A stretch of DNA of 64,000 nt, from sequence record NC_029091.1; one strand, given 5' to 3'. Below, in pieces: positions 18,364 through 28,893 of this stretch (positions are counted from its first letter, which is position 1; each line of letters begins with the position of its first letter). The position numbers and the translations under genes were made by a program. This DNA is from Escherichia phage APCEc01. Under the pieces are notes generated by a model. The model did not search any database. It was not told the DNA's origin and saw only the letters and a list, made by a program, of their open reading frames with translations.

Positions 18364-19356
18364 ATGTTACCTGTCGTCGGAAAACTTATTTCTCCAAAAG
18401 AACTGGCTGAGATTATTCCTTTGTCGGAAGCTTACGCGTCACAAGTGGTTTCTCATCGCGAACAAGTTAATTCGATTATGAACGGTGAAGACCCACGCAA
18501 ACTTATTGTTGTAGGTCCTTGTTCAATTCATGACCCTATTGCTGCTGTTGAATACGGCAAACGTCTGGCTGAACTTCAAACTCGTCTTCCTAATGTTCTG
18601 TTAGTGATGCGCGTTTATTTTGAAAAGCCTCGAACTACCGTAGGTTGGAAAGGTCTTGTAAATGATCCATATCTTGACGGAAGTTTTGATATGAACCACG
18701 GTCTTATAGTTGCACGAACATTGTGTCGTAAACTTCTACGTATGGGACTTCCATTAGCAACTGAAGTATTAGACCCATTCACGATTAAGTATCTTTCTGG
18801 TATTTTCTCATGGGTTGCTATTGGCGCCCGTACGACTGAAAGTCAGACACATCGTGAAATTGCTTCAGGTCTACCGATGTGCGTAGGCTTCAAGAACGCA
18901 ACCAATGGTTCTATTAAAGTAGCTACAGACGCGATGTATAGTGCCGCCTGGCCTCATCGGTATATGGGTATGGACGTCGATGGTACTGTAGGCATTGTTG
19001 AAGCTGAAGGTAATCAGAATACGCATATCGTATTGCGTGGTGGGACCAACGGTCCGAACTATCATTCTTCTGATATTCAAGAAGCTTCTAACAAAGCAAG
19101 GGCAGTAGGTCTGAATCATTATGTAATGGTTGACTGTAGCCATGCAAACGCTGATGGGCATTATAGCAATCAAATTGGTATTGGTAAAAATTTAGCAGCT
19201 AATGATTTGGTCAAAGGAATTATGATAGAATCGTTCCTACATGAAGGAAATCAAAAAATTTCTGATAATATGTCCTATGGCGTTTCCGTTACCGATGCGT
19301 GCATCAGTTGGGAACAAACTAAAGAGCTGTTAACTTATATTAATAAGGTTCAATAA
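18364..19356 (+). CDS. 3-deoxy-D-arabino-heptulosonate 7-phosphate (DAHP) synthase, AroG/AroF-type class I
   Basis: 330 aa; motifs GPCSIHD, KPRTTVGWKGL, GARTTESQ, CSHANA, IESFLHEGNQ, TDACISW correspond to conserved and metal-ligand regions of E. coli AroG. Confidence 0.85.
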   Translation: MLPVVGKLISPKELAEIIPLSEAYASQVVSHREQVNSIMNGEDPRKLIVVGPCSIHDPIAAVEYGKRLAELQTRLPNVLLVMRVYFEKPRTTVGWKGLVNDPYLDGSFDMNHGLIVARTLCRKLLRMGLPLATEVLDPFTIKYLSGIFSWVAIGARTTESQTHREIASGLPMCVGFKNATNGSIKVATDAMYSAAWPHRYMGMDVDGTVGIVEAEGNQNTHIVLRGGTNGPNYHSSDIQEASNKARAVGLNHYVMVDCSHANADGHYSNQIGIGKNLAANDLVKGIMIESFLHEGNQKISDNMSYGVSVTDACISWEQTKELLTYINKVQ

Positions 19357-22411: not shown

Positions 22412-22418
22412 ATTAATT

Positions 22419-22434
22419 GGGAGCCGAAGCTCCC
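22419..22434 (+). other. GC hairpin without U tract (gggagc cgaa gctccc)
   Basis: Perfect 6-bp stem; the track ORF TTG start lies inside it. Confidence 0.5.
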
Positions 22435-22446
22435 ACTGAGGAAATT

Positions 22447-23061
22447 ATGTTTAAAGTTAATACTTTTTATAAAATGAATTTTAAAAATGGGGATATTACT
22501 CCACACCTTAAAAACATGTTCTCATATGACCTTATTGAGCCTTTTGAAGTTTTAGAAGTTACTGATGCCGGCTCAGTTTGTGAAATTAGAACTTCTGAAG
22601 GTAAAATTTATCAGGCCGGTGTTGGTAAATTCAGTAATTGTTTTACTTTAATATTCTCGACCGATTTAGATGAGCATTTTATTGAATGTCCTAACCCTAA
22701 GGTCTATGAAGTTCCACATCAAGAAACTAAGAAAAATGGACCGCACGAATATACGAAGGTTGAAACTCCTCACGGCGTGATGTGGCGACATAACTCTCCT
22801 TTTGGAAGTAAAGGAACATTTGCTCAACTGGCTAAGCCCTACGACGATGAAAAATATGTAGTAGTCCTTTTATCTGAACAGGGTACTCAAGACCGTGGAT
22901 GCCAGCGTTCTGGTTTATTGAGTGAACTCGAAGCTCATAACCTAGCACGTGAATTCGTTGAGAAAAATCCTGGTTCTGAAGCTCTAGTCATGAAAGCAAT
23001 TACTCAATATATCACTGCTCAACCTGTTGTTCATCCGGTAGAAATTAATTTCATTAAGTAG
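22447..23061 (+). CDS. Hypothetical protein
   Basis: 204 aa from ATG with RBS gagga downstream of the hairpin. Confidence 0.5.
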   Translation: MFKVNTFYKMNFKNGDITPHLKNMFSYDLIEPFEVLEVTDAGSVCEIRTSEGKIYQAGVGKFSNCFTLIFSTDLDEHFIECPNPKVYEVPHQETKKNGPHEYTKVETPHGVMWRHNSPFGSKGTFAQLAKPYDDEKYVVVLLSEQGTQDRGCQRSGLLSELEAHNLAREFVEKNPGSEALVMKAITQYITAQPVVHPVEINFIK

Positions 23062-23115: not shown

Positions 23116-23313
23116 ATGAAATTTTTAATAGCACAAACAGTCCAATTAAAAGGTGTTGGAATCCCTGGGATGATTTTTAAAGTTCTCAACGAATTTAAAA
23201 CTGCCGCTGGAATTATCAATGAAGCGTATGCTGTTCAATGGGTTGATGGGACTTCTGACATACGTATGGGTAAAGAGTTATCTCCTATTAAAGGGTTGAA
23301 ACATGTTGAATAA
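23116..23313 (+). CDS. Hypothetical protein
   Basis: 65-aa ORF. Confidence 0.35.
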   Translation: MKFLIAQTVQLKGVGIPGMIFKVLNEFKTAAGIINEAYAVQWVDGTSDIRMGKELSPIKGLKHVE

Positions 23314-23521
23314 ATTAATCCAGAAATTGTTTGGTACGGAAATGATTGAAGTTACTTATCGTGTAACCGACGTTTTTCCATATTACGCGGAAAACCGTTT
23401 AGAACCATACGTTACGTCAATTAAAATGCCTAAAAATGACAGAAATTTATCTATCGAAGACCGTATACCTGGATACGGACATTGGGCTGATGTTGAAATT
23501 ATAAGTGTTAAAGATGTCTGA
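23303..23521 (+). CDS. Hypothetical protein
   Basis: 72-aa ORF. Confidence 0.35.
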   Translation: MLNKLIQKLFGTEMIEVTYRVTDVFPYYAENRLEPYVTSIKMPKNDRNLSIEDRIPGYGHWADVEIISVKDV

Positions 23522-23972
23522 ATTAGAAATAAGAAGTAATTTCAAATGGCCGTCATGTGCATTAAGTAACTTTGCTCAATGGCCTTTTGTTATGGATGGT
23601 ATTCAATTCGGAGGTCTTGAAGGATTTCTCCAAGGATGTAAGGTGAAAAATGTTGAACAACAAAGACGTATATTTGGGTTGTCTGGATTGGCTGCACAGC
23701 AAGCTGGAAGGTCTTACGCAAGAGCTCAGGACCGTGGGACTCTCTTCTGGTTAGGAGTTCCATTTTCAAGATACTCCGAAGCGTGGAAAGAATTATACAC
23801 AAATGCATATTTTGAAGCCGCGATCCAAAACAAGGGGTTTCGTGATGCCTTACAAGCCTCTAAAGGAAAAATTTTGAAGCACAGCATGGCCAGCCACCTA
23901 ACAAAAGATGATACAATACTAACTGAAGATGAATTTATTGACGTGTTAAACCTATTAAGAGACTCTTTATGA
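23505..23972 (+). CDS. NADAR-like (YbiA/DUF1768-like) protein
   Basis: 155 aa; LSNFAQWPFVMDGIQFGGLEGFLQGCKV resembles the YbiA/NADAR core (FSNFAAWP..DG....SEHYFQAQKF); motif-level only. Confidence 0.5.
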   Translation: MLKMSELEIRSNFKWPSCALSNFAQWPFVMDGIQFGGLEGFLQGCKVKNVEQQRRIFGLSGLAAQQAGRSYARAQDRGTLFWLGVPFSRYSEAWKELYTNAYFEAAIQNKGFRDALQASKGKILKHSMASHLTKDDTILTEDEFIDVLNLLRDSL

Positions 23973-24793
23973 AGCCTACTATTTTGACTGATATTGATGG
24001 TGTATGTTTAAGCTGGCAATCTGGACTTCCTTATTTTGCCCAAAAATATAACCTTCCATTAGAACATATTTTAAAAATGATTCAGGACGAAAAATTTATT
24101 TCTCCTGGTAAACTGTTCAATACCGACGATAACCTTGGTAAACAATTAATAGAAAAATATAATAGCTCTGATTTTATTCGTTACTTAGCGCCTTATTCTG
24201 ATGCTCTTCGAGTTATCAATAAACTAAAAGAAGACTATAATTTTGTAGCCGTGACGGCGCTAGGTGATTCAATTGATGCTCGATTGAATAGACAATTTAA
24301 TTTGAATGCTTTGTTCCCAGGCGCTTTCTCTGAAGTAATGATGTGTGGTCATGATTCTTCAAAGGAACAATTATTCGAACTAGCTAAAACAAAATATAAC
24401 GTAATTTGTTACGTTGACGATTTAGCTCATCATTGTGACCATGCGGCAGAAATTCTTAATGTACCGATTTATTGGTTGGCTCGTGGTGAACGTGATGCCA
24501 TTCCTCGTACTGCACAACGTGTACACACGTGGGATGATATTGAATCTCGTTTGGTTCTGCCTAAGAATAATTCAGATTCAGATCGTGAAGACCTTTTAAA
24601 ACGATTGGCGGATTTGCTTAAAGAATCTGGTGCAACAAGTCCAGGTGCATGGCCCAATCAAATTGGTGGCCCCTCGACAACACGTACTCCATATACCTGG
24701 CGAACCCAAGGACCAACTGATATGCAGCCGTGGTGGACGATTCAAAACTTTCCTTTAGATTCGTCTAAATGGACTTGGTCTATAAATTGTTAA
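23969..24793 (+). CDS. HAD-superfamily hydrolase-like protein (putative nucleotidase/phosphatase) with W/P-rich C-terminal tail
   Basis: 274 aa; N-terminal motif I LTDIDGV (DxDG[VT]); overlaps the NADAR-like stop. Confidence 0.45.
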   Translation: MKPTILTDIDGVCLSWQSGLPYFAQKYNLPLEHILKMIQDEKFISPGKLFNTDDNLGKQLIEKYNSSDFIRYLAPYSDALRVINKLKEDYNFVAVTALGDSIDARLNRQFNLNALFPGAFSEVMMCGHDSSKEQLFELAKTKYNVICYVDDLAHHCDHAAEILNVPIYWLARGERDAIPRTAQRVHTWDDIESRLVLPKNNSDSDREDLLKRLADLLKESGATSPGAWPNQIGGPSTTRTPYTWRTQGPTDMQPWWTIQNFPLDSSKWTWSINC

Positions 24794-24802
24794 GGGTTAA
24801 TT

Positions 24803-25072
24803 ATGTTTGTAGTTCATGATATTACAGATGGCAAAAATACCACACGTGACTACGGTCACGTTAACATGTTCTTTCGAGACTGGCCATTGTTTCGTTCAGT
24901 AAAAGACGCAGAAATATTTAAAGAGTGTGTTGAACAAGGGTTCATCTACATTTCAGAATACTATGTTGAAGGACTCGGTAAATGGATTACAACTTATCAG
25001 AAAACGCTGAAATCGCTTCTAGATGAAGTGGCTTATAATAGAACCGTAACCAAAATCGAGGACATCAAATGA
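24803..25072 (+). CDS. Hypothetical protein
   Basis: 89-aa ORF overlapping ligase start. Confidence 0.4.
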   Translation: MFVVHDITDGKNTTRDYGHVNMFFRDWPLFRSVKDAEIFKECVEQGFIYISEYYVEGLGKWITTYQKTLKSLLDEVAYNRTVTKIEDIK

Positions 25073-26562
25073 TTTTAGATATTTTAAACCAAATAGCTGC
25101 GATCGGTTCTACTAAAACAAAACAGGAAATCCTTAAGAAAAATAAGGACAACAAATTACTTGAACGTGTGTATCGTTTAACATATGCACGTGGTATCCAG
25201 TATTATATTAAGAAATGGCCAGGACCAGGTGAAAGGTCTCAAGCGTATGGTCTTCTTGAATTAGATGACATGTTGGATTTTATTGAGTTCACATTAGCCA
25301 CTCGTAAACTCACTGGTAATGCTGCAATTAAAGAGCTCATGGGTTATATCGCTGATGGTAAACCTGATGATGTAGAAGTCCTTCGTCGTGTAATGATGCG
25401 CGACCTTGAAGTAGGTGCTTCAGTGTCTATCGCGAATAAGGTGTGGCCTGGACTTATTCAATTGCAACCACAGATGTTAGCATCTGCATATGACGAGAAA
25501 TTGATTACTAAAAATATTAAATGGCCCGCATTTGCCCAATTAAAAGCAGATGGTGCTCGTTGTTTCGCTGAAGTTCGCGATGATGGTGTTCAATTCTTTT
25601 CTCGTGCCGGCAATGAATATCATGGTCTTACTCTATTAGCGGATGAACTAATGGAAATGACTAAAGAAGCTCGTGAAAGACACCCTAATGGGGTTTTAAT
25701 CGACGGTGAATTAGTTTACCATTCATTTGATATTAAAAAGGCTGTGAGCTCAGGAAATGACCTGTCGTTCTTATTTGGTGATAATGAAGAATCCGAAGAA
25801 GTACAAGTTGCGGACCGTAGCACTTCAAACGGTTTAGCAAATAAATCTCTTCAAGGGACTATTTCTCCTAAAGAAGCTGAAGGTATGGTTCTTCAAGCCT
25901 GGGACTATGTTCCTTTAGATGAAGTCTATTCTGATGGCAAAATTAAAGGTCAGAAATACGATGTTCGTTTTGCTGCTCTTGAAAATATGGCTGAAGGCTT
26001 TAAACGAATTGAGCCAATTGAAAATCAGTTAGTTCGTAATCTTGACGAAGCTAAAGTGGTTTATAAAAAATATGTTGACCAAGGTCTTGAAGGTATTATC
26101 CTTAAAAACCGTGATTCGTATTGGGAAAACAAACGTTCTAAGAACCTAATTAAATTTAAAGAAGTTATTGATATCGCTTTAGAAGTTGTAGGATACTATG
26201 AACACTCTAAAGACCCTAACAAATTAGGTGGTGTCGAACTCGTATCACGTTGTCGTCGTATTACAACCGATTGCGGTTCAGGTTTTAAAGATACAACTCA
26301 TAAAACAGTTGACGGTGTAAAGGTTCTTATTCCTTTAGACGAGCGTCATGATTTAGACCGTGAACGATTAATGACCGAAGCTCGTGAAGGTAAATTAATT
26401 GGACGTATCGCTGATTGTGAATGTAATGGTTGGGTTCATTCTAAAGGCCGTGAAGGCACTGTAGGTATTTTCCTCCCAATTATTAAAGGGTTCCGTTTTG
26501 ATAAAACAGAAGCGGATTCGTTTGAAGACGTATTTGGACCGTGGTCCCAGACAGGTTTATAA
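25069..26562 (+). CDS. 30: ATP-dependent DNA ligase
   Basis: 497 aa; N-terminus MILDILNQIAAIGSTKTKQEILKKNKDNKLLERVYRLTYARGIQYYIKKWP matches recalled T4 gp30. Confidence 0.95.
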   Translation: MILDILNQIAAIGSTKTKQEILKKNKDNKLLERVYRLTYARGIQYYIKKWPGPGERSQAYGLLELDDMLDFIEFTLATRKLTGNAAIKELMGYIADGKPDDVEVLRRVMMRDLEVGASVSIANKVWPGLIQLQPQMLASAYDEKLITKNIKWPAFAQLKADGARCFAEVRDDGVQFFSRAGNEYHGLTLLADELMEMTKEARERHPNGVLIDGELVYHSFDIKKAVSSGNDLSFLFGDNEESEEVQVADRSTSNGLANKSLQGTISPKEAEGMVLQAWDYVPLDEVYSDGKIKGQKYDVRFAALENMAEGFKRIEPIENQLVRNLDEAKVVYKKYVDQGLEGIILKNRDSYWENKRSKNLIKFKEVIDIALEVVGYYEHSKDPNKLGGVELVSRCRRITTDCGSGFKDTTHKTVDGVKVLIPLDERHDLDRERLMTEAREGKLIGRIADCECNGWVHSKGREGTVGIFLPIIKGFRFDKTEADSFEDVFGPWSQTGL

Positions 26563-26750
26563 TGAAAGCTTATTTAGAAACAGTTATTGTAGCTAAGAAG
26601 GATGGTGGAGATGTTTCCACCTCTTGCTCTCAGATTATATTAGATTTTCCTAATAACGATTCCTATCATATTTTTATGGACAATTTCGATAAGTACGAAA
26701 AAGGCTCTAATTTTGAAGTTTATCGTACTTTGCTTCCGATTGTGGATTAA
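26562..26750 (+). CDS. Hypothetical protein
   Basis: 62 aa from ATG overlapping the ligase stop (TAATG). Confidence 0.4.
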   Translation: MKAYLETVIVAKKDGGDVSTSCSQIILDFPNNDSYHIFMDNFDKYEKGSNFEVYRTLLPIVD

Positions 26751-26769
26751 GAGCCTTCGGGCTCTTTTT
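26751..26769 (+). terminator. Rho-independent terminator
   Basis: gagcc ttcg ggctc ttttt. Confidence 0.75.
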
Positions 26770-26805
26770 GGCATAAATATAAATTATTACTAAAAGGAAA
26801 ACACT

Positions 26806-28893
26806 ATGTCTGAACAATTAAATGAAGTGTTTGAATCTGAAGGCAGTCTTCCTGTCGTCAATTTGAACCCTAAAGCTAAAGTTCCACAAGTCTGGAAAAT
26901 TGGTGATATCGATACAAATATTGTAGTTCGTTTATTCTCTTACCTTTCCGAAGGCGACGCTGTAAAACAAGTTAAACTTGGCGACAAATACGCTCATGTT
27001 GTTATTATGAGTCTGTCTGAAAAGGGTAATCTCGCTGAATTGAAAAATGGCCTTGGTCCTGCTCCTATTGATGCAATCAACACCATTTTCAATACAGTAT
27101 ATGAACAAGTTAAAGCTCTTCGTATGGATGCAGTTCTGTTCCGATTCCCTACCAAGAAATTGAAAGGACGTGGACAACAGCTTCAAACTCTTCTTGCTCG
27201 TTTAGTTTCTACTAAAACCGGTGGTCGTTTTAAAGTATTGTCGGCAATGTATCAATTCACAGGTAAACACACCTATGTGATGATGGTTCGTAAAAATGCC
27301 AACATTGAAGATATTAAAGGCATCCCTAACATTAACACAGAGTTGTACACGAAAGTAGATTCTGATGTTGGCGAAGTTTATGTGAGTAAAAAGACCGGCG
27401 AAAAAGTCACCAAAGAAACGGCTATCGCTGGTTCTATTGCTGCTGTAGAAGAAAAACGTAAAGATAAGCCTGTTATTGCTCGTACTAAAATTTCTCGTCG
27501 TGCTATTGCCGCAAGCCAATCTTTAGAAGCTGACCGCCAAGAAGGTGAGTTATTCCAGAAATACGAAAATTCTGCTAAAGAAGTTAGTGGCCCGGCTACA
27601 GCCGAATTACTTCCTGAAGCATATGAAATCGTACTAGCCCAAGCATCATCCACAGCAAAAGGCACTTTAGTTGCTGATATCGAAAATAAGATTTATAATC
27701 GTATTGATGAATCCTTTAGATTTGCTGATGAAGTTTCTTATGGTAGTGTTATTAAGCCAACTTTAGAAAAGTTTGCTAAGAAAATTAAAACTGAAAAAAC
27801 AACATCTGTTAAAGCATTAGCTGCTTTTGTTGAAGCTGCAAACGAAATTGCGGACTCTATTAAAGACGAATGGTTTGAAGATTTTAGACGTGATAATTTC
27901 CAACTGGCCGACGATGTTTTAGCTGAAGTATCTGAAAAAACTTGGAAACAACGTAAATCAGCGTTCTTGTCTAATGTGATGTATACTTATGCACGAGAAT
28001 CGGCTAGAGGCACCTTTAATATAACAATGAATCGGGACCCTAAACAATACTCTGTTGCTGAAAAACGAGCTATTCGCGAATATGCCTCTTCTGCGTATAC
28101 CGATATCAATAATATGTTGTTAGGCCGTTATAAACCGGATTTTTATGATGTTGCAGATGAAGATGAAGTTAAACGCGCTATTGATGGTCTTGATTCGGCG
28201 TTTTTAAATGGAGACCGTTTACCTGAAGGACTAACGTTGTATAGAGCCCAGTCTATCAGAATGCCTATTTACGAAGCAATGGTTAAAAATAAGGTATTCT
28301 ACTTCAGAAACTATGTTTCTACTTCATTAGCTCCTATTATTTTTGGTGGGTTTAAAGAGAACGTTGCCCTTGGACTTGCTCCTGAAGAAGTTCGCAAAGA
28401 GCTTAACATTGACAATAATGACGAAGGTGTTACTATTTCTCCTAGCCTGGCACGTACCGCTATGCATGCGCCAGAACAAATTCGTGTTAATGTTGGATGG
28501 GCCATTGATGGCGCTCATAAAGTTAACGTGATTTATCCCGGACAGTTGAGTAATCACCCTAATGAGCAAGAAATTATTTTGCCTAGAGGCATTCTCTTGC
28601 AGATAAATAAAATTACAGATGCGTCATCTGACACTGGTGCAGGTTTAGAATCCAACCTTAAATTTATTCAAGCTGAAGTCATGTCCTCGGACCAGTTGGA
28701 CGAAGCTGTCATTTACGATGGTGATGTTCTCATGGAAACAGGCGAGGTAGTTGCTATGACGGGTGAAATCGAATCAGATGAGCCGGTATCTTTTGCCTCA
28801 TTTGTAGAAAAAACTAGTGCACCTAAAGGTTTGAAATTGTTAGCATCTTTAATGGATTTAGAATCAGTTCCGTTTAAATTTATCCAAGGATAG
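26806..28893 (+). CDS. alt: Alt ADP-ribosyltransferase (virion-packaged, modifies host RNA polymerase)
   Basis: 695 aa; C-terminal half matches recalled T4 Alt (e.g. YRAQSIRMPIYEAMVKNKVFYFRNYVSTSL, ILPRGILLQINKITDAS, IQAEVM); synteny. Confidence 0.85.
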   Translation: MSEQLNEVFESEGSLPVVNLNPKAKVPQVWKIGDIDTNIVVRLFSYLSEGDAVKQVKLGDKYAHVVIMSLSEKGNLAELKNGLGPAPIDAINTIFNTVYEQVKALRMDAVLFRFPTKKLKGRGQQLQTLLARLVSTKTGGRFKVLSAMYQFTGKHTYVMMVRKNANIEDIKGIPNINTELYTKVDSDVGEVYVSKKTGEKVTKETAIAGSIAAVEEKRKDKPVIARTKISRRAIAASQSLEADRQEGELFQKYENSAKEVSGPATAELLPEAYEIVLAQASSTAKGTLVADIENKIYNRIDESFRFADEVSYGSVIKPTLEKFAKKIKTEKTTSVKALAAFVEAANEIADSIKDEWFEDFRRDNFQLADDVLAEVSEKTWKQRKSAFLSNVMYTYARESARGTFNITMNRDPKQYSVAEKRAIREYASSAYTDINNMLLGRYKPDFYDVADEDEVKRAIDGLDSAFLNGDRLPEGLTLYRAQSIRMPIYEAMVKNKVFYFRNYVSTSLAPIIFGGFKENVALGLAPEEVRKELNIDNNDEGVTISPSLARTAMHAPEQIRVNVGWAIDGAHKVNVIYPGQLSNHPNEQEIILPRGILLQINKITDASSDTGAGLESNLKFIQAEVMSSDQLDEAVIYDGDVLMETGEVVAMTGEIESDEPVSFASFVEKTSAPKGLKLLASLMDLESVPFKFIQG

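Follow-up and report, generated by a model that had tools for sequence, protein, structure and literature searches.

Two overlapping open reading frames (ORFs) in the window, the 64,000-nt stretch of phage DNA analysed here, raise the question of whether a NADAR-like gene and its HAD-like neighbour act together as an ADP-ribose-processing or anti-defence module, as a preliminary description made from the sequence alone had proposed. Both ORFs, at 23505–23972 and 23969–24793, exist as first described, and strong matches to PF08010, PHROG 652 (E = 2e-52), and PHROG 420 (E = 1.5e-77) identify them as real genes rather than chance ORFs. Homologues of the first were found in ~1,500 phage records and homologues of the second in ~1,400. 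With a probability of roughly 80%, we read the pair as adjacent, functionally separable genes: 30.3, corresponding to adfN, and 30.2, which would encode a Mg-dependent HAD phosphomonoesterase.

Source phage and gene order

Over the 1.8 kb around the gene pair, sequence identity is 99.9% with Shigella phage JK36 and 99.4% with Escherichia phage mogra, whose record places it in Mosigvirus (Straboviridae, Tevenvirinae), the genus of RB69. By nucleotide identity, the window phage is thus a Mosigvirus, an RB69-like T-even phage. On the + strand, genes follow the order 30.7, a 214-aa ORF, 30.5, 30.4, 30.3, 30.2, 30.1, 30 (DNA ligase), alt.1, and alt (Table 1). This agrees with the T4 and RB69 annotations, so the pair corresponds to orthologues of T4 genes 30.3 and 30.2. 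The start of 30.2 (274 aa) overlaps the stop of 30.3 by 4 nt (ATGA).

Table 1. Features of the 30.4–alt region in the window
Feature	Position	Strand	Remarks
Gene 30.4	23303..23521	+	72 aa; PHROG 2042; stop overlaps adfN start
Gene 30.3 = adfN (anti-DarT factor NADAR)	23514..23972	+	152 aa; Pfam PF08010, E 2e-69
Gene 30.2, predicted HAD core and helical C1 cap (residues 1–200)	23969..24568	+	Motifs I–IV present
Gene 30.2, C-terminal extension and stop codon	24569..24793	+	Helix 203–219, then predicted disordered W/P/T-rich tail 220–274
Gene 30.1 (DUF3045), between 30.2 and ligase	24803..25072	+	Pfam PF11243, E 1.4e-26
Gene 30, ATP-dependent DNA ligase	25069..26562	+	Pfam PF01068
Hairpin AGAGCCTTCGGGCTCT and T run, then CATAAATA, just 5′ of alt	26750..26784	+	Read from sequence
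alt, ADP-ribosyltransferase	26806..28893	+	Pfam PF03496, E 3e-28

The pair had been placed immediately 5′ of ligase and alt, within one early transcription unit. It does lie in the same cluster, but 30.1 separates 30.2 from the ligase gene, and alt.1, a hairpin, and CATAAATA separate the ligase gene from alt. The hairpin, which is GC-rich and runs into a T stretch, follows alt.1, and CATAAATA, which agrees with the T4 late promoter consensus at 7/8 positions, then occurs ~25 nt before alt. Alt is a late product that is packaged into virions. Since a hairpin and a late-type promoter-like sequence precede alt, and Alt itself is late, a single early unit that includes alt is doubtful. A generic promoter/terminator scan was uninformative here, returning 34 sites against 26 expected by chance and missing the alt.1/alt hairpin.

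Two further features distinguish the surrounding region. A 204–214-aa ORF at 22417–23061 (PHROG 17531, without a Pfam match) occupies the position at which T4 and RB69 have the ~95-aa gene 30.6, and is a lineage-variable insert. A DAHP synthase gene at 18364–19356 (PF00793, E = 5e-75) lies directly 5′ of dCMP deaminase, at a position where RB69 has no gene, and is an auxiliary gene of the aromatic-amino-acid pathway carried by a T-even phage.

Gene 30.3 (adfN) and DarTG1

The mechanical ORF starts at GTG 23505, and the T4 and mogra orthologues are annotated from the ATG at 23514, which yields 152 aa. The window protein is 96% identical to T4 AdfN across all of these residues, and by this similarity ORF 23514–23972 is gene 30.3, adfN.

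The SNF..WP...DG core on which the first ORF had been called NADAR-type is present (S18-N19-F20-A-Q-W23-P24-F-V-M-D28-G29), with SNFAQWPFVMDG of window gp30.3 aligning to SNFAAWPIKVDG of Escherichia coli YbiA. The residues E36, K43, and H123 are likewise present, and all three are invariant among 60 aligned homologues. In the AlphaFold model (pLDDT 92.8), H123 closes the last strand (residues 120–123), where phage NADARs carry His and other NADARs Glu or Asp (Cihlova et al., PMC11125620), and the C-terminal helix (138–151) is intact. A Foldseek search of the PDB returned only NADAR proteins at probability ≥0.97: YbiA (2b3w), the Phytophthora protein PnNADAR with ADP-ribose (8bau), and the DarG1-type NADAR of G. 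lovleyi (8bat), with YbiA as the best match (E = 3.8e-5, query TM 0.68).

Sequence searches gave a narrower picture. The Pfam NADAR model PF08719 did not match window gp30.3 at E-values up to 1, leaving PF08010 as the only Pfam match, and single-sequence searches against PDB sequences and NCBIfam returned nothing; the link to NADAR comes from the family profile and the fold search. That profile matches YbiA at E = 0.009, and one homologue bears both PF08010 and PF08719. Sequence-level NADAR membership would therefore run through PF08010 and the weak YbiA profile match. Taken together, the HMM match to PF08010, the NADAR-only fold matches, and the catalytic residues sustain the NADAR assignment of the first ORF.

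The T4 orthologue has been characterized in detail. Johannesman et al. (Nat Commun 2025, PMC11825919) renamed T4 gp30.3 AdfN, reported that it has a NADAR fold in which E36A and K43A weaken function, and found that the purified protein strips ADP-ribose from DarT1-modified DNA. Deletion renders T4 sensitive to DarTG1, and ectopic AdfN allows RB69 to grow on DarTG1 hosts; the sensitivity of RB69 stems from a T insertion that removes the last 15 AdfN residues. The same study found that T4 AdfN cannot substitute for DarG1 in uninfected cells and is fully active only during T-even infection, so that an extra T-even factor is reportedly needed. Hydrolysis of guanine-linked ADP-ribose in vitro was also demonstrated for a gp30.3-type NADAR of an E. 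coli phage, with T4 cited among the gp30.3-carrying phages (Cihlova et al., Toxins 2024, PMC11125620), and in a T4 transposon screen, 30.3 insertions were lost on DarTG1 (HIDEN-SEQ preprint). That NADAR genes in T4-like phages are located among early genes, close to those for ADP-ribosyltransferases, had been pointed out by Iyer et al. (2022).

The suggestion that the locus acts against DarT-like toxins was thus correct and already published for the T4 orthologue, a DNA ADP-ribosylglycohydrolase that counters DarTG1. NADAR reversal of DarT-type DNA ADP-ribosylation was reported for it in 2024–2025, and the window adds no new mechanism. By analogy, window AdfN would act as a NADAR-fold N-glycosidase that hydrolyses the ADP-ribose–guanine bond set by host DarT1 on phage ssDNA, and removal of the ADP-ribose would let replication proceed on DarTG1 hosts.

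Window AdfN shares with the T4 protein its length, its gene neighbours, E36, K43, H123, and the C-terminal helix, and differs from it by six amino-acid changes. The T4 internal out-of-frame ORF 30.3′ (76 aa; equivalent region 23650–23880) is not conserved, as the equivalent frame stops after 34 codons. With the NADAR antitoxin DarG1 of G. lovleyi and with YbiA, the window protein has in common the fold and the core motif SNF...WP...DG followed by E...K, but identity is just 16–20%, and the last-strand catalytic residue is His in the window protein, Asp in the DarG1 type, and Glu in YbiA. Unlike the gene for DarG1, window adfN is not linked to a toxin gene.

RB69, the type phage of Mosigvirus, has a frameshifted, weakened copy, whereas the RB69 T insertion is absent from window adfN and the gene is full length. 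Given the 96% identity, the intact catalytic residues, and the intact C-terminal helix, we infer a functional AdfN in the window phage and expect it to be resistant to DarTG1, in contrast to RB69. The corresponding prediction is that this RB69-like phage should plaque on DarTG1 hosts where RB69 fails. Many truncated or fused gp30.3 fragments (126, 109, 91, and 89 aa) from T-even phages occur among the protein database matches, which suggests that adfN is often broken in nature, as in RB69.

The product of gene 30.2

The second ORF had been called HAD-like from its N-terminal motif I, and both the predicted structure and an alignment of 53 homologues uphold this, with the fold and the catalytic motifs intact. 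gp30.2 opens with MKPTILTDIDGV, which is HAD motif I (D8/D10), followed by motifs II (T96), III (K132), and IV (D150/D151). D8, D10, and K132 are invariant across the alignment, and T96, D150, and D151 are nearly so. In the model (pLDDT >90 over residues 1–200), D8/D10 come after strand 4–7, T96 ends strand 91–96, K132 precedes helix 133–142, and D150/D151 end strand 145–150, all at canonical sites of a Rossmann-like HAD core whose C1 cap is a helical bundle inserted after motif I. Based on this model, we are confident that gp30.2 is a HAD superfamily protein with all four catalytic motifs. In this superfamily, a second Asp two residues past the nucleophile marks phosphotransferases, not dehalogenases.

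Assignment to a family within the superfamily is less direct. gp30.2 falls below the curated cut-offs of HAD_2 (16 bits vs 23.8, E = 0.014) and TIGR01428 (12.7 vs 125), PF06941 (NT5C) did not match it, and searches against PDB sequences, both with the single sequence and with a profile, gave non-significant matches only. Weak NT5C matches were found for 8/53 homologues, and one distant relative from the profile search below, P0315, scores above the NT5C gathering cut-off (29.3 vs 24.8). Structurally, gp30.2 matches NT5C enzymes well, yet other capped HADs match it at least as well. Compared with the NT5C 5′(3′)-deoxyribonucleotidases (human cdN and mdN; 3bwv), gp30.2 has the HAD core, a four-to-five-helix cap, and the DxDGV form of motif I; its W16 aligns in HMMER with the Phe that stacks on the base in cytosolic cdN, which makes this position aromatic in both. 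In contrast, identity to these enzymes is 15–19%, and gp30.2 adds a helix and a disordered tail.

gp30.2 is most likely a small-molecule phosphomonoesterase, with (deoxy)nucleotide monophosphates as the likeliest substrates, and most probably a (deoxy)nucleotide monophosphatase related to the 5′(3′)-deoxyribonucleotidases. The DxD motif would supply the nucleophile/acid pair, and the helical cap would enclose the small substrate. A literature search on gp30.2 as a HAD protein returned nothing relevant, and no dNMP phosphatase assay was found in the literature searched.

An exhaustive profile search collected 1,022 cluster representatives, mostly of 190–215 aa. One distant relative (P0238; 6001–7776 of contig L083) carries a fused nucleotidyltransferase-like domain (PHROG 24943, “DNA polymerase”) on a marine contig that also encodes PolA, and another, from a segment at 2321–4650 of contig L084, lies two genes past an AAA_33 P-loop kinase. 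Such fusion partners and contexts of distant relatives are anecdotes and gave no consistent signal.

The unusual W/P-rich tail noted for the second ORF is borne out by residue counts: W and P number 6 and 7 in the last 55 residues, and 3 and 9 in the 219 before them. By prediction, residues 220–274 are disordered (pLDDT 45–60). The window protein is an orthologue of T4 gp30.2 in position and in sequence (~70–73% identity), and although residues 1–51 are identical, the tails are unrelated in sequence. The window tail has no counterpart of the T4 GIEYL...RPT segment, a G-IEYL-x-x-[QR]-P-T element common to several lineages including T4. None of the + strand ORF translations listed for the tail region contains the T4 IEYL motif either; the Mosigvirus tail thus appears to be a different sequence and not a frameshifted version. 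Among homologues in general, the tail is mostly absent or different, and where present it varies in length and sequence. We can guess that this disordered aromatic/proline stretch serves as a docking motif, which may attach gp30.2 to a partner.

A role other than that of a housekeeping nucleotidase is conceivable for gp30.2, though unlikely: it could be a second counter-defence or ligase-coupled enzyme of the Straboviridae that dephosphorylates DNA ends, toxic nucleotides, or immune signals derived from nucleotides, with the variable aromatic tail docking a phage or host partner. In a related lead, the AdfN helper may be 30.4 and not 30.2. If gp30.2 does act in counter-defence, a phenotype would appear only on hosts with the matching system.

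There is also a more specific version of the coupling to ligase. Nearly all T4-like phages have a member of the gp30.2-type HAD family, and its gene is almost invariably located 5′ of DNA ligase. gp30.2 might be a DNA-end-healing (3′-phosphate) phosphatase that readies nicks for the neighbouring enzyme. We consider this rather improbable. Closed helical C1 caps usually go with small substrates, and HADs that act on macromolecules are capless under the established HAD classification. Furthermore, capped HADs outscore Pnkp in structural comparison, T4 already has PseT, and among T4-like genomes conserved gene order is by itself poor evidence.

Relationship between 30.3 and 30.2

If the two proteins formed one module, gp30.2 would dephosphorylate a product or intermediate derived from ADP-ribose and would be the “additional T-even protein” of AdfN. 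The ATGA overlap in Tevenvirinae, an upstream NADAR gene at 37/78 loci, and the limitation of full AdfN activity to T-even infection are in keeping with this idea. The T4 transposon data point the other way. In the HIDEN-SEQ supplementary table, the only genes significant on DarTG1 are 30.3 (log2FC −7.25) and 30.4 (−1.79, padj 0.014), whereas 30.2 insertions are neutral (log2FC −0.12, p 0.61, 71 TA sites), as are insertions in 30.1 and alt. T4 30.2 is also non-essential on K-12, with 72/72 TA sites struck, and is never named as a hit in the HIDEN-SEQ text. On these data, gp30.2 is dispensable in the laboratory and not required for the anti-DarTG1 action of AdfN, and we rejected it as the missing T-even cofactor. 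NADAR hydrolysis, for its part, frees ADP-ribose, and no phosphatase step is needed (PMC11825919).

We also examined synteny at 78 viral contigs or loci with a 30.2 homologue, scoring a NADAR gene when it lay upstream on the same strand within 6 kb. The ligase gene is 3′ of 30.2, directly or after 30.1, at 72/78 loci, and an upstream NADAR gene is present at 37/78, abutting 30.2 in 20 of those. After clustering at 70% identity, the corresponding values are 27/32 for ligase and 12/32 for the NADAR gene. Many lineages thus keep 30.2 by ligase and have the NADAR gene elsewhere; a distance of ~59 kb separates the two in Pectobacterium phage PM2.

T4 gene 30.2 also has its own middle promoter, PM30.2, annotated inside 30.3 (X53848). 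The equivalent site in the window, at 23885/23892–23917 (+) in the 3′ end of adfN, keeps the −10 element TACAAT (23912–23917), and the MotA-box-like TTGCTA of T4 is TGGCCA in the window and TGGCTA in RB69. Independent middle-mode transcription of 30.2 may accordingly be weaker in Mosigvirus, judging from these motifs.

Joint action of the pair as an ADP-ribose or anti-defence module is therefore not supported: on DarTG1, 30.2 is neutral and 30.3 is lost, 30.2 tracks ligase, and 30.2 has its own promoter in T4. We hold the single-module reading to be quite improbable and conclude that 30.3 and 30.2 are neighbours in a conserved cluster, not an obligate module. Both belong to the T-even “cd to 30” early/middle cluster, and some functional tie between 30.2 and the NADAR gene is possible given the ATGA overlap and the 37/78 loci.

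Two other readings concern the individual proteins. One is that small ADP-ribose derivatives or riboflavin-pathway intermediates are the main substrates of the NADAR protein, as for YbiA, with DNA repair secondary; this would suit the protein's best fold match and the proposal by Iyer et al. (2022) that soluble ADP-ribose derivatives are the main phage NADAR targets. It is very improbable and already largely refuted for the T4 orthologue, which strips guanine-linked ADP-ribose from DNA in vitro and whose loss leads to DarTG1 sensitivity. Least probable of all is a catalytically dead gp30.2 scaffold with its function in the W/P-rich tail. The unusual tail and the dispensability of the protein would suit it, but the four catalytic motifs are conserved in 53 diverse homologues and most family members are tail-less.

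With 30.3 and 30.2 read as separable genes, two small leads are left at the locus: gene 30.4, and an adfN that has diverged unusually little between genera. Gene 30.4 occurs in 720 phage records, compared with 726 that have T-even-type AdfN, and could be the T-even factor that AdfN reportedly needs; polarity on adfN is the simplest explanation of its DarTG1 signal in T4. As for divergence, the segment 23503–24101, which spans adfN and the first ~130 nt of 30.2, has 84–93% nucleotide identity to T4, in contrast to 40–80% in 30.4, the rest of 30.2, 30.1, and ligase. This island in the nucleotide alignment suggests either recent exchange between genera or extra constraint on the adfN region.
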